IMG/VR virus record: IMGVR_UViG_3300049846_001015 | Coordinates: 1 to 52,647 of that record | DNA from: a virus | Lineage: Duplodnaviria > Caudoviricetes | DNA: 52,647 nt | Strand: one strand, 5' to 3' | Shown: positions 2,547 through 40,898 of the stretch, in pieces | How positions within the stretch are numbered: position 1 is the stretch's first letter | Layout of the letters: each line of letters starts with the position of its first letter | Program-made: the position numbers and the translations under genes | The notes under the pieces: model-generated | The model's input: only the letters and a program-made list of their open reading frames with translations | What the model was told of the DNA's origin: nothing | The model's database searches: none

Positions 2547-2728
2547 GCTGGAGGGAACAAGCCTTGGCTATACCAAACGTTGTCGAGGATAGGATTACCG
2601 ATGGCGCGGGATATTGCTCCGTAAGGTCCAATGCCGAACCACGCAAATATTACGGCATCAAATTCCGAGAGACCCGAGAACGAATTGAGATCCTGAACTT
2701 CGAAATCCAGATGCTTTACTCTAGACAT
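2543..2728 (-). CDS. FAGYxEFD micro-protein array member 15
   Basis: Core SFSGLSEFDAVIFAW. Confidence 0.7.
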   Translation of the reverse strand: MSRVKHLDFEVQDLNSFSGLSEFDAVIFAWFGIGPYGAISRAIGNPILDNVWYSQGLFPPA

Positions 2729-2879
2729 ACTTAGTCCTCAGTAAAAAGGACAGCAAAGGTGGGAGTCGGGCCGCCGCAGGGTATACCAGAAACGGAACGA
2801 TGAAATCGTCGCATTCGCAATATCCGGCAAAAAATCGGATAGGAGTAGAGATGGAGAATTCGGGAAGATCAAGACGCAT
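2721..2879 (-). CDS. array member 14
   Basis: Manual translation; core FFAGYCECDDFIVPF. Confidence 0.7.
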   Translation of the reverse strand: MRLDLPEFSISTPIRFFAGYCECDDFIVPFLVYPAAARLPPLLSFLLRTKYV

Positions 2880-3024
2880 AGTATTTTGCCAAAATGCCCA
2901 CGAAAGAAACCCACTGAGCTCCGGGTGAAATCATAAATGGGACAATAAACGAGTCGTATTGGGAATATCCGGCGAAGCGGCGTTTTTCTATCCTAGCGTA
3001 TAAGCTAGGCGATTCAATTCTCAA
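2869..3024 (-). CDS. array member 13 (TTG start uncertain)
   Basis: Manual translation; core RFAGYSQYDSFIVPF. Confidence 0.65.
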   Translation of the reverse strand: MRIESPSLYARIEKRRFAGYSQYDSFIVPFMISPGAQWVSFVGILAKYYAS

Positions 3025-3208
3025 AGGTTACCTCCGAAAACTTGCTTCTCAAAGCGTAGGGGCATCCGTCCGAATGGAAGAACGCCGCGAAAATCACCCC
3101 GTCCATCTGATCGTACCCTTTCAAAGAAGCCCGAAGAGAACCTAGCCAATTTTTAGCTAGTCCGTGACACTTAAACCAATATCTGGTGCTTGGGTTTCCT
3201 ATTACCAT
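3014..3208 (-). CDS. array member 12
   Basis: Core SLKGYDQMDGVIFAA. Confidence 0.7.
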   Translation of the reverse strand: MVIGNPSTRYWFKCHGLAKNWLGSLRASLKGYDQMDGVIFAAFFHSDGCPYALRSKFSEVTFEN

Positions 3209-3357
3209 ACGTCAAGATTGATAGCTCTGGGTAATCCGTTGAAGTCAAAGAACGCAACCGCGAGAACCCGGTCGAATGCGTGGTGCCCCGCGAATTTCGT
3301 CACGAATTCATCCGTGCCCCATAGCGGAATTAGGGGGAGCCGAGAGTTTATCACCAT
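3202..3357 (-). CDS. array member 11
   Basis: Manual translation; core KFAGHHAFDRVLAVA. Confidence 0.7.
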   Translation of the reverse strand: MVINSRLPLIPLWGTDEFVTKFAGHHAFDRVLAVAFFDFNGLPRAINLDVW

Positions 3358-3360
3358 TTT

Positions 3361-3552
3361 TCACCGTTGATACATGAGATACCGCCCCACCGGACCAATA
3401 GTTGTGAACATGCAAGAAAAGATCCCGGAAGATAAGGGGGATTGGTTAAACGGAGCTATAACAGTATCGAATTCTCTATAACCTGCGAAATTTTGACCGA
3501 TCAAAGCCCACTCCCCCCAACCGGGGCCGATGTTAGTAGTTTGAAGTATCAT
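3361..3552 (-). CDS. array member 10
   Basis: Core NFAGYREFDTVIAPF. Confidence 0.75.
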   Translation of the reverse strand: MILQTTNIGPGWGEWALIGQNFAGYREFDTVIAPFNQSPLSSGIFSCMFTTIGPVGRYLMYQR

Positions 3553-3706
3553 AGATAAATCTGGTACTCCTGGCTTTTAGATCAAGTGGTTCGTAAGGGC
3601 TTGTGAGGACTGGATCAAACTCGTAGTCGCCCGCGAAAACACCATAAAAGCTGCGGGGGAAGAAGCGGTTTCGAATAATTTCCAAAGGTGAAACTGGGAG
3701 TTTCAT
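3533..3706 (-). CDS. array member 9
   Basis: Manual translation; core VFAGDYEFDPVLTSP. Confidence 0.7.
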   Translation of the reverse strand: MKLPVSPLEIIRNRFFPRSFYGVFAGDYEFDPVLTSPYEPLDLKARSTRFIYDTSNY

Positions 3707-3720
3707 GTTCAACTCGCAAG

Positions 3721-3915
3721 TTAATCTCGGTCAAACCAAAAGCAGTTATCCGGGACGCCGGGAAACGCGGACAGTAGATTATTGGGGATGTGCATAACAT
3801 GAGGTTGCCGGAGGAAGTTCACGATAATTTCGTCTAGATCCGCGAAACCCGCAAACATTGCGCAGTTAATCACGCACTTTTCGATAACTCGAAATCTTTG
3901 CCTCGGAAGATTCAT
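3721..3915 (-). CDS. array member 8
   Basis: Core MFAGFADLDEIIVNF. Confidence 0.7.
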   Translation of the reverse strand: MNLPRQRFRVIEKCVINCAMFAGFADLDEIIVNFLRQPHVMHIPNNLLSAFPGVPDNCFWFDRD

Positions 3916-4073
3916 GCTTCCCCCATAATCGCTTTTTCTATCATAAACGAAGGCATAGCCGCAACTGGACGATGAAATCGAAATGGAATGATAAACGAAT
4001 CACACTGAGCGTACCCGGCAAAAAAGTCGAGAGCGAGGAAATCATCCTCAGCCAACGGACACGGGAGGATCAT
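3912..4073 (-). CDS. array member 7
   Basis: Manual translation; core FFAGYAQCDSFIIPF; AAGGAG RBS; ATGA overlaps at both ends. Confidence 0.75.
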   Translation of the reverse strand: MILPCPLAEDDFLALDFFAGYAQCDSFIIPFRFHRPVAAMPSFMIEKAIMGEA

Positions 4074-4204
4074 GTTATCTCCTTAAAAATGCAACTACCG
4101 GCGCAGTCCGCCCAAATAACGCGGTCGAAATCGTAATACCCTACGAGAAGAAAAAACAAGTCCAGATTCAATTCCGTCGGTAAATCTTGGGATTCGACTT
4201 TCAC
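4070..4204 (-). CDS. array member 6
   Basis: Manual translation from GTG; core LLVGYYDFDRVIWAD. Confidence 0.65.
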   Translation of the reverse strand: MKVESQDLPTELNLDLFFLLVGYYDFDRVIWADCAGSCIFKEIT

Positions 4205-4209
4205 TCAGG

Positions 4210-4380
4210 CTACTCCGCATAATAATTTGGCTTGAGGCCGAACCACCAAGCGGCCTCGGCCCTTGCTCCTACGAAGGGGATCATAACCCAATCGAACTCA
4301 GCGAATCCGGCGAAGTTCTTGAAAGCGAGTACCGCAGCGTAGGCAGAGCAGGGGGTTTCCATCAACGGGAGAGCAGCCAT
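4210..4380 (-). CDS. array member 5
   Basis: Manual translation; core NFAGFAEFDWVMIPF. Confidence 0.7.
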   Translation of the reverse strand: MAALPLMETPCSAYAAVLAFKNFAGFAEFDWVMIPFVGARAEAAWWFGLKPNYYAE

Positions 4381-4538
4381 ATTTTTCCTTCGAATAGGAA
4401 ACTAACACAGGTATCAATGTCGGTGGGAGAGATCCCGTTAGGAATGTACGCGGCAAAAATAACGGAATCGAATTCTTGCCGCCCCTTGAACTTGCCATAA
4501 TACGGCACAATAGCAAACTTGTCTCGTCTAAGAATCAC
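4362..4538 (-). CDS. array member 4
   Basis: Manual translation from GTG; core KFKGRQEFDSVIFAA. Confidence 0.7.
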   Translation of the reverse strand: MILRRDKFAIVPYYGKFKGRQEFDSVIFAAYIPNGISPTDIDTCVSFLFEGKIWLLSR

Positions 4539-4734
4539 TCCCGGCCTCCGGAAACTCAGGGGGAGAGAAGATCAAGTCCAAATTTCGCAGAGGGTCCGCG
4601 CCTACAATCATCCTTCCCCTCCCCAGTCCACAGAAAAATGACGCAAAAATCACCGAGTCACAATCAAGATACCCAGCGAACTTGGTGTATCCCGCGTAAG
4701 GGGGGCGGGCGGCGTTATAAGCTGGTAACAGCAT
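4528..4734 (-). CDS. array member 3
   Basis: AGGAG RBS before ATG 4734; core KFAGYLDCDSVIFAS. Confidence 0.75.
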   Translation of the reverse strand: MLLPAYNAARPPYAGYTKFAGYLDCDSVIFASFFCGLGRGRMIVGADPLRNLDLIFSPPEFPEAGSDS

Positions 4735-4757
4735 GATCTCTCCTAATTTCTGCGTTG

Positions 4758-4952
4758 TCAATCCCAAAGATCATAGTCGATGAATCGACTCGGAAGCGCT
4801 ATCGGGTCGCCGTGTCGATAAGGAGAGGCTATTGCGTAGTCGAACTCAAAATTCCCCGCGAACCTAAAGAAGTCCTTAAAAATCTCCCTCATTTGTAGAA
4901 CGCTCCCCGGAACCGTGGATCTCCGTTTCGAAAATTCAGGTTCTAGAAGCAT
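4758..4952 (-). CDS. array member 2
   Basis: Core RFAGNFEFDYAIASP. Confidence 0.7.
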   Translation of the reverse strand: MLLEPEFSKRRSTVPGSVLQMREIFKDFFRFAGNFEFDYAIASPYRHGDPIALPSRFIDYDLWD

Positions 4953-5128
4953 AATCTCCCACCGAAAGTAAAGTTTCGGGAGAACCCTGTCCTCGACACT
5001 CGGATTCGAGCCTCGGGGTCGTCATACAAAAACGGAATTATCGCCTCGTCGAACTCCGTGTACCCGACGAAATTCGCGATGGCGTTAATCTTGCCGCCGC
5101 CGTATTCAATGTTGCTAACGACTCTCAT
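4943..5128 (-). CDS. array member 1
   Basis: GGAG RBS before ATG 5128; core NFVGYTEFDEAIIPF. Confidence 0.75.
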   Translation of the reverse strand: MRVVSNIEYGGGKINAIANFVGYTEFDEAIIPFLYDDPEARIRVSRTGFSRNFTFGGRLCF

Positions 5129-5146
5129 AAATACTCCGAGAGACAC

Positions 5147-9001: not shown

Positions 9002-9019
9002 AGTTATTCTCCAGAAAGG

Positions 9020-9093
9020 TAAGCCGGGCGGGATTCGAACCCGCAACCGACGGATTAGAAATCCGTTGCTCGATCCAATTAAGCTACCGGCTC
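9020..9093 (-). tRNA. tRNA-Arg(UCU)
   Basis: Cloverleaf: GAGCCGG/CCGGCTT acceptor, GCTT/GAGC D-stem, ACGGA-TTTCTAA-TCCGT anticodon arm, GCGGG-TTCGAAT-CCCGC T-arm; CCA not encoded. Confidence 0.92.
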
Positions 9094-23175: not shown

Positions 23176-24436
23176 AATGATTCTCCCGTTTGCGGTATAA
23201 CGCGGCGCAGTAAAAACTGCCCGCGATAATTGGATCAATCACAAGAGCGAAATCCTTGCCAGGATACGCTCGCCCCACTCTCCCGACGATTTGCTCGGGG
23301 TCCGTGCAGGGCGTGGCGAGAATCACGGTGTCGAGTCGGGGAATATCAGACCCTTCTCCGATTTTCCCCGCCGTGGCAAGAATAACTTTCGCTTCGGAAG
23401 CCCGTTCCAAATCTTGTTGGGATACCTTCTTTCCCTTCCACGTTCCTACATAAATTCCCGGAGTAACCCCCCTGAGTCGCAAAAGAGAGTCGAGTCTCTC
23501 AAGTTGTTCAAGCCGGTGGGAAACGACTAGAATATTCCGGGTGGCGATTCCCCCCAAAACGGTCTCTACGAGCCAATTGTTGTACCCCTCATTCCGAGCG
23601 ATGGCGGTCAAGCAACGAACGTGGTTGATCTCTCCCCGAAACATGAAATCTCGGTCGGTGAGGGTTGTTTGGAGAGAAATAGGTTGGTACTGGAATTGAA
23701 CGTCGTTCTTCTGCCCCTCGCAGATCTTATCTGAGATATGGAATTCCCACATCTTCTCCATGCCGTCTTTTCGACGCCAAGTGGCGGATACCGCAAGTCG
23801 GTATCGAGCGGGAAGTTTGGAAATCACCCGAACGAAAGTGTCGCAGGGCATTCGGTGCCCCTCATCGCATATTACAAATCCGAAGTACCGCCAGAAACTC
23901 TCGGGGAGCCGGTCCATTCTGGCGTTGAGCGTTTGCACCGTGGCTATGGTAACTTCATGCTCGTAATCCAGCCGATCTTCCTGAACATGCCCCGCCTCTA
24001 ATCCGAAGAAAGTTCTGGCTGTGGCTTTCCACTGGTCAATCAGATCTTCTTTGTTTACCAAGACCAGAGTAGAAGTCTGTAGCCTGGAAGCTACAGATAG
24101 CGAAACAACTGTCTTTCCAAAACCTGGAGGTGCCGCGATGAGACAGCCGCCGTTCGCAAGTACATTCCTACAAGAGCATTCCACAACTTCCTGTTGGTTG
24201 TATCTCCAGGTGAGTCGGGGAACCGGCCAATCCACTCTGGGACAGAGAGTGGAATCAAGTCCTGTAAAACCTCGTTGCTTAGCCCATGCTCTCGGAAGTC
24301 CAATCTTGCCATCTTTATTCACCCAAGCATCGCGTACAAGAAGTCCTGTGTGAACGACGGCGGATAGCCGTAATTCATTAAACACGGAATCGGGCAACTT
24401 CTGAGTTGTCCACAGCATTGAATCAATTTCGTTCAT
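23147..24436 (-). CDS. superfamily 2 helicase
   Basis: APPGFGKT, DEGH, SAT, GEGSDIP and Q.VGRVGR motifs. Confidence 0.9.
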   Translation of the reverse strand: MNEIDSMLWTTQKLPDSVFNELRLSAVVHTGLLVRDAWVNKDGKIGLPRAWAKQRGFTGLDSTLCPRVDWPVPRLTWRYNQQEVVECSCRNVLANGGCLIAAPPGFGKTVVSLSVASRLQTSTLVLVNKEDLIDQWKATARTFFGLEAGHVQEDRLDYEHEVTIATVQTLNARMDRLPESFWRYFGFVICDEGHRMPCDTFVRVISKLPARYRLAVSATWRRKDGMEKMWEFHISDKICEGQKNDVQFQYQPISLQTTLTDRDFMFRGEINHVRCLTAIARNEGYNNWLVETVLGGIATRNILVVSHRLEQLERLDSLLRLRGVTPGIYVGTWKGKKVSQQDLERASEAKVILATAGKIGEGSDIPRLDTVILATPCTDPEQIVGRVGRAYPGKDFALVIDPIIAGSFYCAALYRKRENHYVRLGFQRI

Positions 24437-29625: not shown

Positions 29626-30190
29626 TTCTAAAATCCCTGTGGTTTATCAATAATTTCGTAAATCCTTCGTTCAGCAAACTCGCTATCGCGGGGGAGTTAG
29701 CCCGCAGAGTCCCCGCATCTTCGTTGGTCGTGATTATCGTCGAGAGACGATTATCAATTCGGCGGCGAATTAAGAACTCTACTGTAGTTTCGATAAAATC
29801 CGACTTCCTGGCCCCGGCGCTGCGGATTATCAAATCGTCGAGAACCAAAAGAGGGACTTGCTGCGCTCGCTGCCACATCGACAAGTTCTCTGAGAACATA
29901 TAGTCGTCCTCTCGGATCTTGTAGTCTGTCAGCATCTCGCAGGAAACCCACAACCCTAAAATGGACTTCGAGAGGGCGGCTTTCATTACGATTGCGGCGC
30001 TACCCGACTTCCCGTAGCCAAATCGCCCAAACAGCAGGAGGTTTTTACCGTCCTCCACGTTCGCTTTGACGTTTACCGCCCACTCCCGCAAACCATCTTT
30101 GTATGGCGCGGCGTCAGGAATCTCAGAGAGTTTACACTCCCAATGATTTCTCGGCAAACGAATATGGTTTAGCAGACTTTCGAGGTTCAC
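29609..30190 (-). CDS. DnaC/IstB-like helicase loader ATPase
   Basis: LLLFGRFGYGKS, LLVLDDL, TIITTN. Confidence 0.85.
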   Translation of the reverse strand: MNLESLLNHIRLPRNHWECKLSEIPDAAPYKDGLREWAVNVKANVEDGKNLLLFGRFGYGKSGSAAIVMKAALSKSILGLWVSCEMLTDYKIREDDYMFSENLSMWQRAQQVPLLVLDDLIIRSAGARKSDFIETTVEFLIRRRIDNRLSTIITTNEDAGTLRANSPAIASLLNEGFTKLLINHRDFRSELKA

Positions 30191-30537
30191 TTAGTCCTCA
30201 AGCTGTCAAAAAAATCAGGTCTGAGATAGGCTTCGTACAATCGAGTTAGCCGGGTTATCATCTCGGGGGGCCAGCCAGTGGCGTCGAGAGCTTTCCGAAA
30301 TTTCTCTGGGGTGAAGCTGTCTTTCCGCAAGTAAAACAAGTTCCACCAGAGGGGAGTCAAACTGTCGGAAATGAATCCGCAATCTTCAATCAATCCCAAG
30401 TTATGGAGACTTTGGAGAATACCACAAATGTAGAAAAAGTCAGTGTATGCCGGGCTCTCGGCCATTTTAGCCAGAGCGGCCACCTGCGGATATTTGTGGT
30501 TCTCCGGTACAATAAACTCAAGGCGTCTCACTTCCAT
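30187..30537 (-). CDS. hypothetical protein
   Basis: 116-aa coupled ORF. Confidence 0.6.
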   Translation of the reverse strand: MEVRRLEFIVPENHKYPQVAALAKMAESPAYTDFFYICGILQSLHNLGLIEDCGFISDSLTPLWWNLFYLRKDSFTPEKFRKALDATGWPPEMITRLTRLYEAYLRPDFFDSLRTK

Positions 30538-31088
30538 TCTTGGTACTCGCGGTCGCCTCGGTGGGACGCGGCGAGCTTCGCCTTTTGACTTTCATTGTAT
30601 TCATCGGCGAGTCGCTTGAAAACCTTTGCCGTAACGAACTGGCGTAAGTTCACGTTAGTTTTGTTGGCCTCGGCTAATTTCATTATGAAATCATCCGAGT
30701 AATGGGACTGGAGTTTCTGGAGGGGGAACTGGAGACTCGAATACTCCTCCCGATTGAGGGGATCGAAAATATCCGCTAGAGCGTAGATACTGAGTCCAAC
30801 AAATCGCCGCCCCGTTCCCTGTTGCAAAACCTTGGGAGTTTCCGGCTTTCTTCGATACAAAGGCCAGTTGTTCTCCTCAAAGACGATCTTCACTTCGTCG
30901 CTCACCCGTTCGTACTTGAGCAACTGCGATTCGGCGCATTCGGTCAAGTAGTTGAAATCCACTTCGGCGGCGCGAACGTAAAGATGAGGTTGATTCTTGC
31001 CTTCAAGTTCCCATCTGGAAAGGAGTTGAACGAAAGGCCAGATATCGTCGCCGTGGGTCCGAATCAAAAGAGCAAGATCTCGGTTCAT
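30528..31088 (-). CDS. hypothetical protein, possibly replication initiator-related
   Basis: Upstream of the loader; function inferred from position only. Confidence 0.55.
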   Translation of the reverse strand: MNRDLALLIRTHGDDIWPFVQLLSRWELEGKNQPHLYVRAAEVDFNYLTECAESQLLKYERVSDEVKIVFEENNWPLYRRKPETPKVLQQGTGRRFVGLSIYALADIFDPLNREEYSSLQFPLQKLQSHYSDDFIMKLAEANKTNVNLRQFVTAKVFKRLADEYNESQKAKLAASHRGDREYQEWK

Positions 31089-33055
31089 GCAATCAAAGTC
31101 CTCGTCAATTTTATGTTCGAAATCCTGTACGAACTATTAACTCCGCCTGGGACGTTCCAGGTAAAAGAATCGTTGGCGAAAGCCGGATTGAATGCGTAAG
31201 AAGCCGATCCTGTCCCTGAAAGCGTATCGCTGCCAGTGGGGTAGGTAAATTCAAGCACATTCATTCCCTCTTCCATGTCGTAGTCGAAGCTGACAGTATA
31301 ACTTCCCCCGATAGCCATTCCCACTTTATTAAGTGTGAAGTAGGAATCAGTCCCGTCCTCAGTCGTGTATAGCCACCCGATATCATTCTCAAGACCAGCC
31401 CCACCTTCAAGACCCAAAGCGGAAACAAGAGCGGGAATCAGCGAAGAATTCCCGTCACCGGCGCAGTAGGTATCAAACAAATTACCGGAGGTGTAGGTAG
31501 TTCCGCCGAGACAGCCGACATCCCACACGACCAGCTTTTGAGTAGCTTTGGGACCGTCGGAATCGTAATCAATCGTCATGCTGGCGATGATTCCCTTTAC
31601 CTCTCGGATTCCGCATTCAACAGTCTCGGGAAGCTCGAAAACTACCATCTGATTGAGACGGAGGCAGGGAAGATATGCTACTTCGATATTCCAAGCGTGG
31701 CTTTCCATGCTGAGTTCTTGGAACCGCCGAATAGCCAGATTGAACAAGTGTTCCCTATGGACGATGTACTTGTTTTCATGGTCCTCCTGGGCAATTCCAC
31801 AGGAAGATACGGCGTTGATCTGGGCTACGGCGTCAATCTGCGTGGGAGACCCTTGATCTTCCTGAAAGTCGGTAGAAGTTTGATCTTGCGCCGGCCCCCC
31901 GAAGCTGGAGTAGGTGGGCGGAAATCCTTTGTTCACGAAAGACTGAAAGGTGCTAAAGACGACATTCGAAGTTTTCGTTCTTCGAGATTTGTCTTGGGGC
32001 TGGGACTTCGTACTGGCTTCGGATTCGTCCTCTTTGTGCTGACCGTAAAGTAGAATCTTACCAGTGGTGGTTTGGTCGTCAAACCACGTTCCGTCCTGCT
32101 TAACAACTTTCACAGCGACGTTGCCGTCTTGAATTCTCTCGACTTCCTGGACCTCGGTAACGTCAGATGACCAAATTCCATTCTTAATGTCGGACTCATT
32201 AGCCGCTAGGTTATCAAGATTGACCTTCATCGTGGGAGTCGGGATTCCACTCCGCTGACACATCGAGAAGAATCCGGGGCGACTAGCGTAGCCCCCGGAA
32301 TTAGCAGCGTTTCTAGCGTCGGTGAAAGGTTTTAACCCGCAGTCATATTTAGATAGTTCGGCCCCACGAAACCTAACGATTGAAGTACGGGTGGGAGTTC
32401 TTTCAGCTTTTTCCGCGCTGACAATCCAATCCCGAGAAATATAGACTTCGGGAGAGTTGGAGTCGTCCTTCCAAGGCTCAACTGTAAGAACCCCGCCGAC
32501 TTGAACGAACAAATGAGAGTACCCGGCTTGAGCGACTAGTCGCATTTCTTCGTATAGGGAACTTCCCTCAACCGGACCCATAACTACGTTAGGGGTTACC
32601 GGGGAGAAGCTTCTAATGGTATTGGGAATTCCCGCGTAGTAGTCCGCAATCGTCTCAAGTACGGTATTTACTTGAGTGAGGTTGAACCGCTGCGTACTGA
32701 TTGGCTTTTGCGCCAAATGCGTGAAGAAGGAAGAAACCGTCCCGGAAATTTCCGAGACGGGTTCAATCTTCTCCTGCGAAGCCGTCATAACCCCATTGAC
32801 CCACTTCGTAGTCGGCGCTACGGAAAAACAACTCTCATACCCCTCCGGAAGTTCTTCGCAGCAAGGATAGGCCACGGTTGCATCGAGAACAACCGAAACG
32901 GGTCGGCAAAGACCTTCGCAGGTCAATTCGTACTGACAGTTGTTATTAGCGAATTCAACAGTCGCATTAAACCCGCCGTTTAGGACGTAAGTAGCGCTGA
33001 AACGGAGGAGCGCTTGAGAGTCGCTCGGATTAGTGATTTGACAGGCTTCGGCCAT
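31085..33055 (-). CDS. putative tail tip/baseplate hub-like structural protein
   Basis: ~656-aa beta-rich ORF; ENKYI...LAIR...YLPCLRLNQMV...GII resembles phage hub C-termini; start taken at ATG 33055. Confidence 0.55.
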   Translation of the reverse strand: MAEACQITNPSDSQALLRFSATYVLNGGFNATVEFANNNCQYELTCEGLCRPVSVVLDATVAYPCCEELPEGYESCFSVAPTTKWVNGVMTASQEKIEPVSEISGTVSSFFTHLAQKPISTQRFNLTQVNTVLETIADYYAGIPNTIRSFSPVTPNVVMGPVEGSSLYEEMRLVAQAGYSHLFVQVGGVLTVEPWKDDSNSPEVYISRDWIVSAEKAERTPTRTSIVRFRGAELSKYDCGLKPFTDARNAANSGGYASRPGFFSMCQRSGIPTPTMKVNLDNLAANESDIKNGIWSSDVTEVQEVERIQDGNVAVKVVKQDGTWFDDQTTTGKILLYGQHKEDESEASTKSQPQDKSRRTKTSNVVFSTFQSFVNKGFPPTYSSFGGPAQDQTSTDFQEDQGSPTQIDAVAQINAVSSCGIAQEDHENKYIVHREHLFNLAIRRFQELSMESHAWNIEVAYLPCLRLNQMVVFELPETVECGIREVKGIIASMTIDYDSDGPKATQKLVVWDVGCLGGTTYTSGNLFDTYCAGDGNSSLIPALVSALGLEGGAGLENDIGWLYTTEDGTDSYFTLNKVGMAIGGSYTVSFDYDMEEGMNVLEFTYPTGSDTLSGTGSASYAFNPAFANDSFTWNVPGGVNSSYRISNIKLTRTLIA

Positions 33056-33086
33056 CGCTGTTACCCAAAAGGGGCGCGGAACGAAT

Positions 33087-34736
33087 CTACATCTTGAGAA
33101 GGGCTTCGGGAGTATCCTCACCGATAGTCCAAATTTCGTAATCGAAAAATGGCAGCTTATTCTTCACGATCAATTCGAGATCCGTTCTTCGCTTATGGCT
33201 TCGGGCGAAAACAGCCCTCATCTGTTCGGCTGGGAATCTATCCTGACCCCAGATAAACCGATCCTGCAACCTAGCGACAATCCACTTATAGTCGGAGAAT
33301 CGGTTAAAGATATGAGGCTCGGCGTGAGCAAATGAATCTTGCTCGTCAGTGAAAACCAACATATCCGCAGGAGGCCAGGGATCGAAAATATCTTTCACCT
33401 TAACGTAGGCGTCTTTCTTTTCAGAAGAAGTCGGCTTGTCACTTTGCCCGACGATTGAAACACCGAACTGTACCGCCCAATCAATTGTCTCTCCGTCGTA
33501 ACTGCCCAACTCGAACACAGAGGCTTGCGTAAGAGAAGCAATTCGGGCAACTGACTGCTTCGACCCCCGGAGAGTATGCTGCCTGCGATAACCATATCGG
33601 TGTTTCCCCCAAAAGTCGATTCCCAGATCTTGTTCAAATACCTCTTCCCAAGAGTCGATCAATTGGGATACGGAAAACCGCTCTAGCCGGGAGTCATCAT
33701 ACTTGACCGAGGCAATGGTAGCGGAAGCTTCAACAAATCTTTTGATATCCGGAACCTTCCAAGTCGTCCCCACAGAATATCTAGTGGTAGCTGGGGGAAT
33801 CAAACCCGGATAATCTTCCCCAACAATTTCTGACATAGTTGTGTGGTCGGTAAGTAATTGCGGTAGCCCCGCCGCCATACACTCGGCCACGGTCAGACCC
33901 CAGCCCTCACCGTGAGAGGTATCAATACGCCAATCTGACATATTGATAATCTCGTTCAAGTCCTCAACGGGGAGATGCTTGTTCCAGTCAAATCCCGAGA
34001 ATACTACGTTATCCTCGATCCCATATACTTTCGCCATTTTGCGGAGATTGAATCCGCCGCGAGTTTCTTCCACGTCGGCTTTCGTGTGCGCGAGAAACTG
34101 AATCTCCGGGATGGTCTCTTTCATCCTCGCAACGTAGTCGAACGCGAGATCCCATCCCTTGTGCCAGAAATTTCTGTTGATATTCAGAACCAACGGGGCG
34201 TCGGGAAAAATAGGAACTCGCCAAAGCTTCGACCACTTCTTCCGGAGGGAACTTTTCGAAACATCCAACTTCCTAAACGCGGGATTAACCGCATGATGGA
34301 TAACTCGGTCGCTTTCTGCCCGAGTCCACAACTTCTGAGAAAAGTAGGACAGGTGAATCACCGCGCCCGGAGCAACTCCCCACCAGAGATTCAGCATATC
34401 CTCTGGGACTGTTGATCCTTCGTAGGGAAACCAGTAGTAAATCGGAATATTCGCCGGGGCTACTTTCAGATCCATCCAGCCGTTGATTCTTTGGGCGGAA
34501 TCGAAGAAAATAGCTACGTTAGGCCGGATCTCGGAAAGTACACGGTCAATCCCCGCCGCGTCGTAGGCTTCCGTGCGAATTTCTTCCCAAGGGAAAGCGT
34601 TTTCAGCTACGCCATACGGCTCGCAGACGACAACAACTTCGTGCCCCCGGTCGTGAAATCCTTGAGCTAGGAGTTGAGTTTGCTGCCCGAACCCTGTACC
34701 CCGGTTGGGGGAATTGCTGATAATCGCGATCTTCAC
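33087..34736 (-). CDS. glycosyltransferase family 4 (GT-B) with extra C-terminal domain
   Basis: MKIAIISNSP..GTGFGQQ, NRN.WHKG.D, TSHGEGWGL..AECMAAGLP. Confidence 0.88.
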   Translation of the reverse strand: MKIAIISNSPNRGTGFGQQTQLLAQGFHDRGHEVVVVCEPYGVAENAFPWEEIRTEAYDAAGIDRVLSEIRPNVAIFFDSAQRINGWMDLKVAPANIPIYYWFPYEGSTVPEDMLNLWWGVAPGAVIHLSYFSQKLWTRAESDRVIHHAVNPAFRKLDVSKSSLRKKWSKLWRVPIFPDAPLVLNINRNFWHKGWDLAFDYVARMKETIPEIQFLAHTKADVEETRGGFNLRKMAKVYGIEDNVVFSGFDWNKHLPVEDLNEIINMSDWRIDTSHGEGWGLTVAECMAAGLPQLLTDHTTMSEIVGEDYPGLIPPATTRYSVGTTWKVPDIKRFVEASATIASVKYDDSRLERFSVSQLIDSWEEVFEQDLGIDFWGKHRYGYRRQHTLRGSKQSVARIASLTQASVFELGSYDGETIDWAVQFGVSIVGQSDKPTSSEKKDAYVKVKDIFDPWPPADMLVFTDEQDSFAHAEPHIFNRFSDYKWIVARLQDRFIWGQDRFPAEQMRAVFARSHKRRTDLELIVKNKLPFFDYEIWTIGEDTPEALLKM

Positions 34737-34981
34737 TTCTTTCTCCTATTCGCTATCCAATCCCCGACGGACTCAAAGTATTCTCCACGACCCTCTAAGG
34801 CAGCCAGTCGGCCAGCCATTTTCTGCTTATCGAATTCCGAGAAACAAGTATTGCAGAGACCGTGAAAATTCCACCCCTTGGGAACCCAAGTATCTCCGCA
34901 ACAGCGGCATACGGCGGGCTCGCGGGGTTTTTCCATGTCTCGGTAGAGATTGGAAAGAAATTCGGTTAGAGCATCACTCAT
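34733..34981 (-). CDS. small zinc-finger protein
   Basis: CRCCG...LCNTCF. Confidence 0.55.
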   Translation of the reverse strand: MSDALTEFLSNLYRDMEKPREPAVCRCCGDTWVPKGWNFHGLCNTCFSEFDKQKMAGRLAALEGRGEYFESVGDWIANRRKK

Positions 34982-35019
34982 AGCTTTATGGGCTTTCCGA
35001 AAAACTTGTCGTATCATAA

Positions 35020-35086
35020 AGGCAAGTGCGGGAATCGAACCCGCCTTACGCATCTTGAAACTGCGATGTCTCCCAGAGCACCTGCC
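35020..35086 (-). tRNA. tRNA-like gene with UCA anticodon (putative tRNA-Cys-derived opal decoder), shortened D-arm
   Basis: GGCAGGT/ACTTGCC acceptor with U discriminator; CGCAG-TTTCAAG-ATGCG anticodon arm with a G.A closing mismatch; 4-nt variable loop; GCGGG-TTCGATT-CCCGC T-arm. Confidence 0.7.
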
Positions 35087-35092
35087 CGTAGC

Positions 35093-35416
35093 TTAGGACT
35101 GGATTCCAAGCCAAGCGTGAACGTCCTCGAAATCGGCCCGATAGAAACGGTTGATTTTGTTGAGAAGCGTTTTGCAGTCAGGGAGAACTTTCGCGGTCTT
35201 TTCGACTTCCTTGTAGGGAATACCGCGAATGAAAGCCAGAGCCAATTGAGCCATCCGAGATTCGTTCCTGAGACGGTAAATCCGGTGCCACTCAAGTTGG
35301 TTGCGATAATCCGGCGCGGCTTTCTTGGATTCTTTCCGGATTATCTTTGACTCCGCGCTGAGAGATTTGACATTGACGCGGAGACGGTGGATAGCGAAGG
35401 TTTTTTCGAGAAACAT
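35093..35416 (-). CDS. conserved basic phage protein
   Basis: L.V.VKSL.AES.IIR.E....L..HR...R.E.R.AQLA.AF.RG.PY..VE; TAAGGAG RBS. Confidence 0.7.
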   Translation of the reverse strand: MFLEKTFAIHRLRVNVKSLSAESKIIRKESKKAAPDYRNQLEWHRIYRLRNESRMAQLALAFIRGIPYKEVEKTAKVLPDCKTLLNKINRFYRADFEDVHAWLGIQS

Positions 35417-35434
35417 GGTAAATGACTCCTTAAT

Positions 35435-35488
35435 GGTATTGAAATGGAAACGCCGCCCATCTCTCGGCGGACCCCGGCATTCAGTACC
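35435..35488 (-). promoter_or_regulatory. structured RNA leader or hairpin
   Basis: Outer pairing GGTACTGAATG/CATTTCAATACC enclosing a CCGCC/GGCGG stem, ending just 5' of the RBS. Confidence 0.4.
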
Positions 35489-35496
35489 CTCTCAAT

Positions 35497-35718
35497 TTAC
35501 CATCGCCCATCGGGACACTCCTCGGATTTCAGTTGAATTTTCTCGGCGAGAAAACACCCGCAAAGGCCGCACACGCTTCCCGCGCGGAATTCACAAGTCG
35601 AGCAAATATTGTGGGCCTCTACTTGAGCCCCGTAATCCCTTGTGGATTTACCCCAGGCTCGGGCTTGCGCTCGGACGCATTTGAAAGCGCCGACAAACAA
35701 TCCAATGATGAAATTCAT
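35497..35718 (-). CDS. DUF6171-like Cys-rich protein
   Basis: ICSTC....VCGLCGCFL..K......CP.GRW. Confidence 0.7.
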   Translation of the reverse strand: MNFIIGLFVGAFKCVRAQARAWGKSTRDYGAQVEAHNICSTCEFRAGSVCGLCGCFLAEKIQLKSEECPDGRW

Positions 35719-35942
35719 TTCTTCGGCTCGCATTTAGTACAAACTTGGCAACAGACCTCCGGACCCTTCGTTCGAGCCAGAGTGCATTTTCCGTGGACTT
35801 CGCAGTTGTAGATCGGAATCCCCGGACACTTCGAACAGGAACTTGTTCGTTTAGTGCCGCATTGCTTGCCGCGATGGGTGCAACTTCGGATCTGTTGTAG
35901 GGTAAACCCGTTGGCGTAAGTCCGAGCCGCCCCGGTTTTCAT
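35715..35942 (-). CDS. small Cys-rich protein (paralogue B)
   Basis: ANGFT..C.HRGK...C..C..HG.C...C..C; ATG four nt after the paralogue A stop. Confidence 0.7.
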   Translation of the reverse strand: MKTGAARTYANGFTLQQIRSCTHRGKQCGTKRTSSCSKCPGIPIYNCEVHGKCTLARTKGPEVCCQVCTKCEPKK

Positions 35943-35946
35943 CAGA

Positions 35947-36186
35947 TTATTGTTCTTGGCGTTTTTCATAGTTAGTACAAGTGGCACAGGGCTGCTGTTT
36001 CTGGGTTGAAGTATACTTTTTTATCGCACACAGACCGTGTACGGCGCATTCAAATACGACTCCTTTACCCCGTCAGCCGCCCCCGACTTTATCTCCTGTG
36101 GGTTTACCGCGATGAACACACAACTCTAACTCGGCCTCTGTGAATCCGTTGGCGAGTTTTACGTTTTTGCCCTTCTTGCAACTCAT
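35947..36186 (-). CDS. small Cys-rich protein (paralogue A) with in-frame TGA at 36073-36075 (Cys or Sec recoding candidate)
   Basis: MSCKKGKNVKLANGFTEAELELCVHRGKPTGDKVGGG*RGKGVVFECAVHGLCAIKKYTSTQKQQPCATCTNYEKRQEQ; similarity to paralogue B on both sides of the TGA. Confidence 0.75.
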
Positions 36187-36204
36187 AGGACACCGAAAGG
36201 ACTG

Positions 36205-37500
36205 CTAACGAGGTTCGAACTTCTTGATCTTTCCGTCGTCCTCGAATTGATCCAGAGTTACTTGGTCGAATCGGTCTCGACGGAATTGCTCTGGACGCAT
36301 GTGGATTCCCCGCTCTCCCAAATAGAGACCCCGATTTACGGTAGGAGCAAGTCGGACGAATCCCGCATCGTCGAAACCGATCCAGGTAGCCCCATCTTGA
36401 CCAGACGGAATTGAGGCGTGTAATATCCGACGGTGTTCAATGGAATTGGCATCTGGAATAAATCCGCCCTGGAATGTCTTGAAGTTGGATTGGGCTTTCG
36501 GCTTAAACCACTCCATAATGGTTCGGTGAGGACGGCGAGAATACTCCACGTTGAGGAATAAGTTCTGGTACTCCAGAACGAATCCTCGGATGGAGTCCCA
36601 AGTTGATTTCGGCATCAGGTAGCCCCACCAATTTGTGTAGGTGGCGTAAACTTGCCGTTGTAGCGGGATCTTCTGGTCTTTCGGCAAAAGGCACTTAGAC
36701 CATCCCTGAACAGCGCCGATATTCGTGTAGTTCTTCTGACCCCACTTGAGAAGGTTTTCACAGAACTGGAGATAGTTGTCGGAGGGAACCATGTCATCTT
36801 CGAAGATGAAAACACGGTCGTACCCCATGTTCTGGAAAAGCTGTTCTCGGGCGTCGATTAGAGTTCGCCCGCAGCCCAAATTCATCCGGTGTTTTACGAC
36901 GTTGAATCCGTCGAGGTCCGAAGCAATTTCGTCTCGTATTCGTGATTCATGCGATGCCAGTGGACGATCCAGGAAAGCGAAACAATCATATTCTGACAGC
37001 GTTTTGTTTTTACGAAGGGCTCCGAGGGTACGAGAGAAGTAGTCCCTTCGATTACACCCGATAATGGCGATAGCCGCATCTTTTTTCTTCTCGAACATGG
37101 AGGAAATATTGTAGGCGTGGGCCTCGAAAGCCATCTTCCCGGTTACTCGCTCGCGCATTAGCAACTCGGGACGTTTCGCGGCGTCCGCTGGCTTTTTCTC
37201 CATGATCTTCGACCATTCGTGGGGGTTCTTCAAAGGGCGAATCGTGGTCACCCCCTTACGAACGTCACGCCCTTCCCATTTCTGGGAATGCCAGTAAAGC
37301 TTGCAGAGAACATTACCGGATTGGCTGAGAATCAATCGGGGAGTTCCCAATTCCGAGATCAACTCCCAAGTGGAGAATTCGGGGTCTTCAAACTTGCCAT
37401 CGGGTTTGAAACGAATCCGGCGATTGCTGGAGTTGGGACTCGTTACAGCAAACTCCTCTTGACTCACAAAGAGATCATAGATCTCATAGTTTTCAGCCAT
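36205..37500 (-). CDS. GT-A fold glycosyltransferase with N-terminal extension
   Basis: AIAIIGCNR.DY..RTL..L, FLD, NLGCG and FIFEDD motifs. Confidence 0.8.
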   Translation of the reverse strand: MAENYEIYDLFVSQEEFAVTSPNSSNRRIRFKPDGKFEDPEFSTWELISELGTPRLILSQSGNVLCKLYWHSQKWEGRDVRKGVTTIRPLKNPHEWSKIMEKKPADAAKRPELLMRERVTGKMAFEAHAYNISSMFEKKKDAAIAIIGCNRRDYFSRTLGALRKNKTLSEYDCFAFLDRPLASHESRIRDEIASDLDGFNVVKHRMNLGCGRTLIDAREQLFQNMGYDRVFIFEDDMVPSDNYLQFCENLLKWGQKNYTNIGAVQGWSKCLLPKDQKIPLQRQVYATYTNWWGYLMPKSTWDSIRGFVLEYQNLFLNVEYSRRPHRTIMEWFKPKAQSNFKTFQGGFIPDANSIEHRRILHASIPSGQDGATWIGFDDAGFVRLAPTVNRGLYLGERGIHMRPEQFRRDRFDQVTLDQFEDDGKIKKFEPR

Positions 37501-37858
37501 TCTCTTCTCCGTCTACGTCACTTGCTGCCTCGGCCAAAAGAGGACCACCGGGCTTGTAATTCTCGCCCACAAACTTAGCAAAGTGAGCACCGTTGATTTG
37601 GATCTGCCGTTGCAGCAACTTGGCGCGCTCCAAGCCGTTTTCGTGAATGTCATTGGGGAGCCGAAATCGGACTCGGATCAAGTCCGAGGGACCAAGGACT
37701 TCGCCTTTGTCCCCGGTTAGAGCGGAATGTTGAACCTCGTCGATATGGACGACCTCGTAAACCTCATCGTCATCTTTGAGTGAATCGGGGATGGCCGGGA
37801 TCTGAACCCCATCCATAGTAACCGTTCGGCGAATCAAGTCCATTTCGTATCTAGCCAT
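37493..37858 (-). CDS. hypothetical protein
   Basis: AGGAG RBS before ATG 37858. Confidence 0.6.
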   Translation of the reverse strand: MARYEMDLIRRTVTMDGVQIPAIPDSLKDDDEVYEVVHIDEVQHSALTGDKGEVLGPSDLIRVRFRLPNDIHENGLERAKLLQRQIQINGAHFAKFVGENYKPGGPLLAEAASDVDGEENG

Positions 37859-38114
37859 TCGTTCTCCTAACATCCTTCAATCGGGGAGTGAATTTTGCTT
37901 GCCGTTCGTCGGTAAACCGGCCAAATCCGAGACGGTCATGTTCATAGGGAACATACCCGTAGATTCCGCCTTTTGTGTCCTTCTTATCCAGAATATCGGC
38001 CTCCATTACGATTCCCACCGCTTTCGGCTTATCCGGTGGGTAGAAAGCGGAGTATTCCCCGGAAAGCATGTTAGGTACAAGGCGACAGCGGATATGGCGG
38101 AGTTCTTTTTTCAT
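37851..38114 (-). CDS. hypothetical protein
   Basis: 87-aa ORF downstream of a promoter-like element. Confidence 0.55.
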   Translation of the reverse strand: MKKELRHIRCRLVPNMLSGEYSAFYPPDKPKAVGIVMEADILDKKDTKGGIYGYVPYEHDRLGFGRFTDERQAKFTPRLKDVRRTNG

Positions 38115-38119
38115 GGTTG

Positions 38120-38147
38120 ATTATTGTCAGATTCTAGATAGAGTCAA
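38120..38147 (-). promoter_or_regulatory. possible sigma70-like promoter (near-leaderless)
   Basis: TTGACT-16 nt-AATAAT, 5 nt before the ATG; same TTGACTCT start and spacing as the 14.9 kb promoter. Confidence 0.4.
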
Positions 38148-38151
38148 GCGA

Positions 38152-38856
38152 TTACGCGGCGTTTTTTGCGATTTCCAGGTAATTTTCCTTCCAGCCGGGA
38201 GAAATCTCGAATTCTCCTTTGGCTATTGGGGCTTCCCCCAAAATCCGGTAGTGCTCGTTCATGTCCGGATGGCCGGAAAGATGGGCCGAGCCGGTGTTCC
38301 ATCGGTAAATGTAGAAGATTTTGTCCCGAGGAAGGAGTTCTCCTCTCCGGGGAAATCCTAGTTTCCACAATTCCTTGTTGAAAGCCTGATCTTCCGCGCC
38401 GGAAACCACTACCGGATACCGAAAGAAGTTCAAAACTTCCTTACGCCAGATAGAAAAGACGTGCGTGTTACCCGGATACTGAGTCTCGGAAAACTCTGTT
38501 CGGGGATAATACCAGTGGTTCTCCGCTCGCCACTCATACGAATCTCTCATCTTCTCAACAGACATCGAAATCCGCCAAGGAAAAGAGATGTCGTCGTCAT
38601 CCCATCGGCAAAAAGCGTCGGCCTGAGAGTCTCCTATCATGTACCGAAGCTTCTCCCCGAGGGTGGGGAACCGGAATGGGAGATTAACTACGCGAACTTT
38701 CGGGTGGTCAAACTTCAAGATCTGCCCCGGAGTATCGTTGCAAATCAAGAGTTCTAGGTTCTCGTAATCCTGCCGGAGAAAGGATTCAACAGCTTCCCCG
38801 AGAATCCATAATATATTAGCCCGGTTGAACGTCGGACAGAGACAAACTACTTTCAT
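38152..38856 (-). CDS. glycosyltransferase family 2
   Basis: VVCLCPTFNR...EAVESFLRQDY.N.ELLI.ND...WDDDD. Confidence 0.88.
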   Translation of the reverse strand: MKVVCLCPTFNRANILWILGEAVESFLRQDYENLELLICNDTPGQILKFDHPKVRVVNLPFRFPTLGEKLRYMIGDSQADAFCRWDDDDISFPWRISMSVEKMRDSYEWRAENHWYYPRTEFSETQYPGNTHVFSIWRKEVLNFFRYPVVVSGAEDQAFNKELWKLGFPRRGELLPRDKIFYIYRWNTGSAHLSGHPDMNEHYRILGEAPIAKGEFEISPGWKENYLEIAKNAA

Positions 38857-38956
38857 TCTTCAAATCCTTGCATGAATTGCAAGAACACGGCGAACCTTTT
38901 GAGGGCTCGCCGGTTCTCTCGCAGACTTTGAACAGATAGCACCCCAGCGAAATCAA
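38816..38956 (-). CDS. possible micro Cys-rich protein (distant paralogue of A and B)
   Basis: GCYLFKVC...CSCNSCKD resembles ECAVHGLC...CATCTN; fills the gap. Confidence 0.35.
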   Translation of the reverse strand: MISLGCYLFKVCERTGEPSKGSPCSCNSCKDLKNESSLSLSDVQPG

Positions 38957-38972
38957 TGCTCGCCAGTGGGCG

Positions 38973-40898
38973 CTAGCTGACTTTCTCTTTCTCCCTCGCA
39001 CGGCGGATAGCCTCTTTCACCAATCCTGGAATCGGGTCTGTCGGATTCAGCTTCCACGCCAAGCCGGTCTTAACCGAGAGTGCGGCGGCTTTGATCTTTT
39101 CGGACCAACTCCAACGGTCCTGTCCGGCTTTAATCTGCTTAACGATTCGCTCGAATTGTTGCTCGCAGCCGTCACAGCCGAGTTTATCCATTTCCTCAGC
39201 TTTGGCCTTGCAATCGCATCCGGGCTTTTCCGCTACCCCAATTTCCTTGAGCATGTTGGTCAACTCGGTGCCCGGTCCTTTCCCTGGAGGGAAAATATTG
39301 ACCGGAGATGCGGGGCGGTCCACTTCCTGCAAACCAATAACAGTAATCCCCCACTTATGCTCGGCGTGGTAGGCGACGAACGCTTTGGGATTTTGATTGA
39401 GATACCACTTGATTCCTTCGAAAAGACCGGGAGAATTTCCACCCTCTCCGACGTTGCCGTTTGAACCAGTTCCGCGAATAACGATAAACCGTCGGACTTG
39501 GCCTCCATGCAAACTGAGTTCTGCTTTAAGCCGCTCTCCGCTATGAACGGTATCCAAATACAGAAGATCCGTCTCGTCGATAATTGGGACCGAAAGGCTA
39601 TCTGTATCCGCGTAGATTTCGACCGACCCTTGGGGGAGGGCTTCAATCACTTTCCGGAGAACCAGATCCGGCTCTTTCGTATAGCTCACCAATTTTAGCG
39701 GCTTGCCCGCTGCGAAGGCAATAGTAGATTCTCGCTTCTTGGTGAATTCGGTGACTCGATTACATTTCGAAGCGAACTCGCGGAGAGTGTCGAAATGTTC
39801 GTCGAGATCCCGCTTACCTGCTTTGCCCCACTCAAACAAAGCTGCGATATCTGTAAGTTGAGGGGGCGGCTGGCTTCCCTGCAAATTACGCAGTTGAAGC
39901 GCCGATGCCGGTCGGAAATGCTTGATCGGATTATCCAACAAGTATTCCCACTGGTCTTTGGGGAGCTTGAACCCGCTGTGGATTTGGCGGAGTTTATCGG
40001 GAGACCGGCGAATCAACTCCAAACTAACCGAATGGACTTCAACCAAATGCTTTGGCAAGTCCTCATCCGAGATGTCTTGATTTACGAAGTGGTCGTAAAT
40101 ATCGTCTAGCGGTAATCCTAGTTCTTGGTGCCCGAGGACGTAATTCCGAACCTTATCGTACAGGAGTGCCGGATACTTATTCCCCCCGACTCGGCCAAAA
40201 CGATGAATCCATCGCAAAAAGGGAAGGCAGAGAGCCCGCCCCCCGGCCTGCCTGAACTTCTCATGGATGTAGAGTTCCTCCCCGCCAAATCCTCGGAAAT
40301 AAGGATTGAACCCTACCCATGATTTCTTGAGACACGCAAAAACTCCCAGACCTTGGCCGGGAATCTCGAAAGGAGGATTTTGCGCGTCGGCGGCTCGGTT
40401 GTCGCAGCCCCACGTTCCCCACATGGCCGAACGCCATACGGGATCGAATTGAGTTTCGAAACTGTTTGTGGGAAGCACTTTCCGTAGATCGGCGACAAGC
40501 GCTACGTCGTCATAGACCAAAGGACCGCTGACGATATCCTTCGAATCCGGGTAAACTTCGAAGTAAGCGCGGAGAAGGTCAATCACTCCGACGGGAAACA
40601 TGACGTGGCAATCCATTACCAAAACCAAGTCCCCGGTAGCTTCCCTAAAGATCCGCTCCCGAGGTTGGGTGGTCCCGGTACTTTCCGGCATCGGAATATA
40701 GCGGACGGTGACAGAATTTTGCGCCCGCATCCATTTCCCAAGGAAACTCCGGAGATGTTTGCTGTGTTCACTTCCGGGAGAGTTATCGACTACGATAATT
40801 TCGCAGTCTTTCAGATTTTGGTGGAGCGCCAAGCTCTCAAGGGTGAAGTATACCCCGTCAAAATCTTCGTAATGAGCCATTCCAATTGTAAGTTTCAT
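38973..40898 (-). CDS. GT2 glycosyltransferase fused to methyltransferase-like and Cys-containing C-terminal domains
   Basis: IIVVDNS, LVMDCH, FRGFGGEE; DLLYLDTVH; C-terminal GPGTEL...CDC.....MD..GC.GC. Confidence 0.82.
   Translation of the reverse strand: MKLTIGMAHYEDFDGVYFTLESLALHQNLKDCEIIVVDNSPGSEHSKHLRSFLGKWMRAQNSVTVRYIPMPESTGTTQPRERIFREATGDLVLVMDCHVMFPVGVIDLLRAYFEVYPDSKDIVSGPLVYDDVALVADLRKVLPTNSFETQFDPVWRSAMWGTWGCDNRAADAQNPPFEIPGQGLGVFACLKKSWVGFNPYFRGFGGEELYIHEKFRQAGGRALCLPFLRWIHRFGRVGGNKYPALLYDKVRNYVLGHQELGLPLDDIYDHFVNQDISDEDLPKHLVEVHSVSLELIRRSPDKLRQIHSGFKLPKDQWEYLLDNPIKHFRPASALQLRNLQGSQPPPQLTDIAALFEWGKAGKRDLDEHFDTLREFASKCNRVTEFTKKRESTIAFAAGKPLKLVSYTKEPDLVLRKVIEALPQGSVEIYADTDSLSVPIIDETDLLYLDTVHSGERLKAELSLHGGQVRRFIVIRGTGSNGNVGEGGNSPGLFEGIKWYLNQNPKAFVAYHAEHKWGITVIGLQEVDRPASPVNIFPPGKGPGTELTNMLKEIGVAEKPGCDCKAKAEEMDKLGCDGCEQQFERIVKQIKAGQDRWSWSEKIKAAALSVKTGLAWKLNPTDPIPGLVKEAIRRAREKEKVS

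Follow-up and report, generated by a model that had tools for sequence, protein, structure and literature searches.

To our knowledge, the phages known to recode stop codons do so genome-wide (TGA to tryptophan, Trp, or TAG to glutamine, Gln) and have genomes of low GC content. The coat/A1 protein of phage Q-beta is a case of programmed UGA read-through, and selenoprotein genes classically show a TGA aligned to a conserved cysteine (Cys), with homology to either side and an interchange of TGA with Cys among homologues. The bacterial tRNA for selenocysteine (tRNA-Sec) has a long variable arm, a 6-bp D stem, a discriminator G, and a length of about 90-100 nt; an 8-bp acceptor stem decides between SelB and EF-Tu. 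The locus described here lies in IMG/VR virus record IMGVR_UViG_3300049846_001015 (Caudoviricetes), and "the window" below means the whole of that phage record, 52,647 bp without a terminal repeat. It combines a Cys-rich open reading frame (ORF B), interrupted by a single in-frame TGA, with a tRNA-like gene of anticodon UCA, here called tRNA(UCA).

Phages that read TGA as Trp (code 4; bioRxiv 10.1101/2021.08.26.457843, in the portions drawn on here) likewise carry a UCA tRNA of their own in a host that presumably reads TGA as stop. The same portions of that preprint report phage TGA suppressor tRNAs, one of them in a standard-code phage, and state that non-canonical suppressor tRNAs can be expected to be missed. 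tRNAReC, or SelC* (Vargas-Rodriguez et al. 2018, as described in PMC13582414, likewise in part), is like tRNA(UCA) in its UCA anticodon, its discriminator U, and its lengthened, Sec-like acceptor helix, and the role proposed for it, delivery of Cys at a UGA in a Cys/Sec position, is also similar. Our preferred reading, which we hold tentatively, is that the ORF B TGA and the phage tRNA(UCA) form a programmed UGA read-through pair that probably inserts Cys; summed over all read-through readings, it is likely that the TGA is functional. The pair is a variant on phage suppressor tRNAs and on UGA-at-Cys recoding of the Sec/ReC type, both known kinds. Its elements are as follows.

36186-35948, minus strand: ORF B, a six-Cys protein gene, 79 aa with read-through and 37 aa without
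36075-36073, minus strand: the in-frame TGA of ORF B, at invariant Cys column C38, context GGC TGA CGG GGT
36043-36025, minus strand: 7-bp hairpin with apical loop GGUCU, beginning 32 nt after the U of the UGA
35966-35715, minus strand: ORF A, in tandem with ORF B and paralogous to it; its codon at the TGA column is TGY (Cys)
35019-35087, minus strand: 69-nt non-canonical tRNA-like gene called by ARAGORN, anticodon tca at tRNA positions 30-32 (window 35058-35056)

ORF B translates as MSCKK...KVGGG, followed by TGA, then RGKGVVFECAVHGLC...KRQEQ and a terminal TAA, and the TGA is the only one in frame. The preliminary description of this DNA, made from its letters alone, had aligned that TGA to a Cys of the tandem paralogue, and the comparison bears this out: BLASTP aligns ORF B with ORF A at 21/56 identical positions (E 3e-10), the alignment crosses the TGA, and the ORF A residue opposite is Cys. 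ORF A in turn has a homologue that is 73% identical (P0001). An exhaustive HMMER search with a profile of the two ORFs returned 108 proteins at E <= 1e-3, 6 of them at E <= 1e-10, and 30 of the 108 were aligned with ORFs A and B. Across these 32 rows, columns C23, C38, and C70 are invariant, and G27, C47, C53, and C67 are at least 90% conserved. The TGA occupies column C38, which is Cys in all 31 other rows and is invariant again in a 16-row alignment. ORF B fits the family pattern (C-x-HRG ... C ... C-x-V-H-G-x-C ... C-x2-C) with HMMER significance, and it keeps all four invariant or near-invariant Cys downstream of the TGA together with the CAVHGxC motif. Inspection of the sequence found no in-frame ATG, GTG, or TTG after the TGA; the conserved C-terminal half of ORF B would therefore be producible solely via read-through.

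Pfam and PHROG searches gave no model for this family, and its six conserved Cys and two His, all within ~50 residues, would suit a small metal-binding domain. AlphaFold2 modeled ORF B with a predicted local distance difference test score (pLDDT) of 85.2; Foldseek returned no match to this model in the PDB at E <= 0.001, and the best VIA-align score (Z of merely 2.3, to a zinc-binding protein) is not a convincing match to a solved fold.

We give virtually no weight to an assembly or sequencing error at 36073, in favor of which nothing was found. Logan contigs from what is probably the source run (depth 17.8) show no difference from the window. A second study contributes a contig (X2, 382 nt, depth 4.4) that agrees with window 35987-36368 with 0 differences; since the same TGA is found in this second study, it is not an artifact of assembly. 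Two 151-nt contigs (X2 and X3) span 34926-35082, which is most of the tRNA, without changes inside it (35019-35082). The contigs from both studies represent the same strain; they rule out assembly error and carry no evolutionary information.

A degenerate-pattern scan of IMG/VR turned up a single syntenic relative, L001, located on a contig of 47.7 kb (record G001). The small gene at this locus, MTDKKMPNGFTEQEVTSCVYRGELSGYRSKKGYCG, TGA, RGATANKVPLNLC...ICGTCNDCKPS, has its TGA in column C38 of the family alignment too, and all four downstream Cys columns are retained. In both phages the TGA is followed directly by CGG GG, and the glycosyltransferases that flank the two loci are 22% and 26% identical. 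After the stop, a homologous frame of 47 codons remains open in L001 and one of 41 codons in ORF B, for which our own arithmetic gives chances of ~0.10 and 0.14, respectively, the retained Cys uncounted. The truncated L001 product of 35 aa is on record from 3 contigs. Recurrence at C38 in a distant phage speaks for selection of a recoding site and counts against a singleton nonsense mutation; the TGA has either been kept by descent over a very long divergence or arisen twice, and a recent random knockout is therefore unlikely. Judged from the sequences, the site looks like a deliberate, site-specific recoding site rather than a broken gene.

If the gene were nevertheless broken, ORF B would be a recent TGY-to-TGA knockout, redundant with ORF A, the L001 TGA would be coincidental, and the tRNA would be a decaying relic. 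It is true that an intact paralogue adjoins ORF B, that tRNA(UCA) scores badly, and that TGA forms number only 2 among >100 family members. The 22-member family tree is also a polytomy, with 13/19 inner branches open, so that it does not distinguish a single origin of the TGA from two and cannot settle the kinship of the two TGA genes. Against this, two far-apart phages have the stop at the same codon and in a common context, no other defect is seen, the open frames and every downstream Cys column are kept, and a UCA anticodon beside a TGA gene would be a further coincidence; we regard a pseudogene with a relic tRNA as rather unlikely. Six distinct homologues were available at the DNA level (window A and B, L001, L004, L008 = L009, and L010), of which two have TGA and four have Cys at C38, with no other in-frame stop in any of them. 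Neither ORF B nor the 431-aa glycosyltransferase encoded upstream of it found a relative when scanned singly against viral_contigs, and the scan with the L001 gene found solely L001. Megablast of window 30000-40000 and tblastn of ORF B gave no match among GenBank phages, a metagenome scan yielded nothing beyond the Cys-form sources of P0004 and P0005, and a search for short proteins (30-39 aa, 3 candidates scored) returned the L001 fragment alone.

TGA is not globally reassigned in the window, and the code is standard, because TGA remains the commonest stop: it ends 38/76 crude gene calls, with 16 of these stops overlapping the next start by four bases (the preliminary description had pointed to many such overlaps), and 25/51 ORFs of at least 100 aa. 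Coding density is 0.82 under code 11 versus 0.86 with TGA as sense, and code 11 leaves ORFs of 1301, 1239, 678, 641, and 628 aa uninterrupted. Unlike the code 4 phages, then, this phage would not count as recoded by the criteria for such phages; its GC content of 50.9% is not low, the one in-frame TGA found aligns to Cys and not to Trp, and the UCA tRNA is non-canonical. In G001, TGA ends 9/44 ORFs of at least 100 aa, and the code-11 density is 0.92.

The leakiest context for termination is UGA followed by C. In the window, C stands directly after 3/38 ordinary TGA stops versus 13/38 TAA and TAG stops, and C also follows both recoded TGAs, in ORF B and in L001, which is consistent with a leaky context being kept away from genuine stops and exploited where recoding occurs. 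The avoidance would also suit plain leaky termination, in which host near-cognate tRNAs (Trp, perhaps Cys) read UGA-C at a few percent, the major product is short and the minor one long, and tRNA(UCA) is uninvolved, and such leakage would agree with the lack of a tRNA in the L001 record and with the poor structure of tRNA(UCA). However, Trp at an invariant Cys column would probably spoil the metal site, and leakage leaves unexplained why one of the two tRNAs of the window has exactly the anticodon UCA and lies 1 kb away, so we give it little credence. As with the Q-beta coat/A1 protein, a read-through pair would mean one leaky UGA with a short major and a long minor product in a phage; unlike in Q-beta, the ORF B stop interrupts a conserved domain, at a ligand-type Cys, instead of marking a domain border, and there is a dedicated UCA tRNA gene nearby.

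ARAGORN calls two tRNAs in the window, tRNA-Arg(tct) at 9018-9093 and tRNA(tca) at 35019-35087 (minus strand). The second, which the preliminary description had already recognized beside the Cys-rich ORF, lies ~1 kb downstream of the ORF B TGA on the same strand and fills a 109-nt gap that runs from a 107-aa ORF (35093-35416) to the likely ATG of the next gene at 34981. With default settings, 200 dinucleotide-preserving shuffles of the window (10.5 Mb) gave 1 match of any kind and G001 gave 0, so the call is not due to chance. The T arm is a perfect 5-bp one (GCGGG-TTCGATT-CCCGC), and the 7-nt anticodon loop with U33 and A37 is that of a canonical cloverleaf as ARAGORN defines it. The acceptor stem has 8 bp (2 of them G.U pairs), the linker 1-2 nt, and the variable loop 4 nt; the discriminator is U, and no CCA is encoded. 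An 8-bp acceptor stem occurs in tRNA(UCA) alone among the 30 ARAGORN tRNAs that we parsed.

The anticodon UCA and the 8 + 5 acceptor/T helix are thus as in bacterial tRNA-Sec, whereas the 4-nt variable loop, the vestigial D arm, the discriminator U, and the length of 69 nt are not; with these last two features and no long variable arm, tRNA(UCA) cannot be tRNA-Sec. It also differs from tRNAReC in being encoded by a phage and in its 4-nt variable loop, and its 69 nt fall short of the at least 80 nt asked for in the portion of PMC13582414 drawn on here.

Much of the evidence on tRNA(UCA) weighs against the read-through pair. Its D arm is vestigial, with 2-3 pairs, and its anticodon stem has 4 bp plus a G.A mismatch at 31-39, which closes the loop. 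It does not reach the Rfam RF00005 gathering score (29 bits); a gathering scan of the window returns solely the tRNA-Arg (9020-9093, 67.9 bits), and in a permissive scan of tRNA(UCA) the T arm alone scores, as a 17-nt piece of tmRNA (14.3 bits). With -20.7 to -21.6 kcal/mol, the cloverleaf falls ~6-7 kcal/mol short of the stability of the minimum free energy fold at -27.4 kcal/mol; for the tRNA-Arg of the window the values are -25.3 and -28.9 kcal/mol, a gap of 3.6. A pattern scan of viral_contigs gave no homologue (2 matches, both tRNA-Glu), and a 24-mer from the 3' half had 1 match among GTDB species genomes, which is not a tRNA (L014:4347-4370, within a fabH-like gene of a Desulfobulbus metagenome-assembled genome, taken as chance). 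A single-sequence covariance model (R1) run over 283 kb (G001-G004) returned ordinary tRNAs and one odd RNA of G003 and no relative; with no homologue found, there is no covariation evidence for the fold. ARAGORN finds no tRNA in G001 (47.7 kb, ~45% complete) despite its TGA form. Codon-score scans of the window for further TGA-interrupted genes, in which antisense frames scored like sense frames, singled out none, which would leave tRNA(UCA) a single client codon, and if it suppressed opal codons efficiently, the 38 TGA stops of the phage would be read through as well. A discriminator T is not specific to Cys, being present in 8/30 ARAGORN tRNAs, including Thr and Ser, by a crude parse. Finally, no head genes were seen among the window genes and the window is only part of a genome; it probably makes up about half of a larger one that is siphovirus-like. 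Of the read-through module first proposed, then, the recoding site has stood up, as a real family column that recurs in a distant phage, whereas the proposed decoder is aberrant and fails the Rfam tRNA model.

Cys is our best guess for the residue inserted, and the most plausible one because the discriminator of tRNA(UCA) is U and two bases of the Cys anticodon, C35 and A36, are retained in it. The identity elements of the cysteinyl-tRNA synthetase are the GCA anticodon and U73 (PMC8762117, in the portion drawn on here). The single phage tRNA-Cys that we parsed likewise has a discriminator T and a short variable loop. In recoded phages, the UCA suppressors are normally charged with Trp, according to the portions used of bioRxiv 10.1101/2021.08.26.457843. 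Trp would be odd at an invariant Cys column.

The UGA may instead encode Sec and be decoded through host SelB and a hairpin further downstream that resembles a selenocysteine insertion sequence (SECIS). ORF B would in that case be a selenoprotein of the phage, and tRNA(UCA) would be either unrelated or a SelB-dependent Cys carrier like tRNAReC. As in bacterial selenoprotein genes, the UGA of ORF B occupies a conserved Cys column and has homologous sequence to either side, the paralogue and orthologues have Cys where it has TGA, and a hairpin lies downstream. L001 has its TGA without any phage tRNA, a long imperfect hairpin follows both UGAs, and tRNA(UCA) has 8 + 5 stacked pairs like bacterial tRNA-Sec. 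In the window, the hairpin with the GGUCU apical loop is nested in a longer imperfect one that begins 6 nt past the UGA, and the 101-nt stretch has a modest folding z-score of -2.08; this hairpin is a possible candidate for a recoding or SECIS-like signal. The hairpin of L001, however, has a z-score of only -0.91 and shares neither sequence nor position with that of ORF B, so that no conserved SECIS is apparent, and an Rfam scan of the ORF B hairpin stretch gave no match. The GGUCU loop lies ~40 nt past the UGA, whereas the distance from UGA to loop in E. coli fdhF is roughly 20 nt. The ORF B family lacks a Pfam match and is not among the known selenoprotein families; its six conserved Cys resemble metal ligands and not a redox pair, and ORF B has no partner Cys beside the TGA. 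Seryl-tRNA synthetase, and hence the Sec pathway, cannot use tRNA(UCA), because it has no long variable arm. According to the portion of PMC13582414 drawn on here, tRNAReC (UCA or GCA, U73) reads UGA as Cys given a SECIS, which would favor this explanation. On balance, we find Sec at this codon quite unlikely. A bolder combination, a long shot by our estimate, is that a miniature Sec-shaped (8 + 5) tRNA brings Cys, or a host system brings Sec, to one UGA kept by selection at a metal-ligand Cys of a small protein of the virion or glycosylation module. If true, this would be a phage-encoded, site-specific UGA-to-Cys/Sec pair amid UGA as the main stop and the first phage counterpart of the logic of tRNAReC and selenoproteins.

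One relative, G003, is a complete record (105.6 kb) with the Cys form of the gene, and no UCA-anticodon tRNA was called or visible in it; its tRNAs are a tRNA-Thr, a tRNA-Glu, and two odd tRNA-like RNAs. No tRNAs were found in G002 and G004. The co-occurrence of TGA with the tRNA is thus compared over two TGA forms and one complete Cys form, too few for a test. Separately, one of the odd RNAs of G003 (23983-24048, equal to L020:4082-4149, minus strand) is 68 nt long; its acceptor stem has 8 bp, its D arm is normal, its variable loop has 4 nt, its T arm is perfect, and its anticodon arm is reduced to 4 bp with a 4-nt loop (CCUC-AAUU-GAGG). It scores 46.4 bits against the Rfam tRNA model and was missed by ARAGORN; with it, this phage group has a second acceptor helix of Sec shape. 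Beside it is a weak match to YrlA, a Y RNA-like family (L017:1646-1784, minus strand; 23.5 bits, E 0.02, below the gathering score), and there is another weak tRNA-like match at L020:4466-4549 (minus strand; 17.2 bits), so that tRNA-like elements are clustered at ~24.1-24.5 kb of G003.

The genes around the pair are the following.

36205-37500, minus strand: putative glycosyltransferase, 431 aa, upstream of ORF B, with a homologue upstream of the L001 TGA gene
35497-35733, minus strand: DUF6171-like Cys-rich gene, 78 aa (Pfam E 7.7e-5, below cut-off; phrog_13558 E 1.1e-9)
35093-35416, minus strand: 107-aa ORF, immediately upstream of tRNA(UCA), absent from the L001 locus
34733-34981, minus strand: 82-aa Cys-rich ORF downstream of tRNA(UCA), with a weak CPCC-like match (E 0.038, below cut-off)
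33087-34736, minus strand: GT4 glycosyltransferase, 549 aa, downstream of the module, with a homologue in L001

The gene order in L001 is glycosyltransferase, small gene, DUF6171-like gene (L001:6155-6448, syntenic with the 78-aa gene of the window), and GT4. The 107-aa ORF, the tRNA, and the 82-aa ORF are missing there; the DUF6171-like gene and GT4 abut, and tRNA(UCA) therefore sits in an insertion relative to L001. A longer reading of the 82-aa ORF, from an ATG at 35053, would overlap tRNA(UCA). Between the DUF6171-like gene and the 107-aa ORF is a terminator-like GC hairpin with a T tract (35453-35470, minus strand), and because of it tRNA(UCA) and ORF B may be on different transcripts; terminator-like sites in the window are at chance level in number, and promoter and terminator scans of the window likewise gave chance-level results. 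No RNA run was listed among the sequencing runs that contain this DNA, which counts neither for nor against expression. Glycosyltransferase genes are unusually dense in this phage (16236-16946, 33087-34736, 36205-37500, 38152-38856, and 38973-40898; three GT2, one GT4, and one GNT-I-like), and interleaved with them, near tail genes, are three kinds of small Cys-rich proteins (the A/B family, the DUF6171-like, and the CPCC-like).

The minus strand carries 73/76 crude gene calls of the window. Encoded are a tape-measure protein, a DNA polymerase, DnaB-like and other helicases, a DNA methyltransferase, a UvsX-like recombinase, a primase-like protein, and several glycosyltransferases. Window 2700-5146 (minus strand) has no ORF of at least 90 aa under code 11 and contains about ten short tandem ORF pieces with a common peptide motif, F-A-G-Y-x-x-F-D-x-x-I-x-P-F; it looks like a small paralogous gene family or a repeated element.

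Returning to the read-through pair, we picture ORF B as a live gene whose UGA, at an invariant Cys position, would be read through by design. The most likely decoder in this phage would be the structurally reduced tRNA(UCA) 1 kb downstream on the same strand, and its link to the TGA is plausible. Decoding would be weak or context-dependent, with C after the UGA and a hairpin downstream, because TGA is still the main stop of the phage; the outcome would be the 37-aa product plus a limited amount of the 79-aa six-Cys protein. We infer from the sequence that tRNA(UCA) is expressed, charged, and used, and likewise the residue that it inserts and a regulatory role; the conditional switch suggested in the preliminary description may be of this kind. 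In two distant standard-code phages a single invariant-Cys codon stays TGA, in one of them with a highly unusual UCA tRNA alongside. If the pair works, phages would control the amount of one protein by private, site-specific suppression or by exploiting the Sec route for themselves, and tRNA(UCA) would be a natural and very small scaffold for an opal-decoding tRNA. Gene callers would then systematically cut such genes short, as with the L001 gene, which is recorded solely as a 35-aa fragment.

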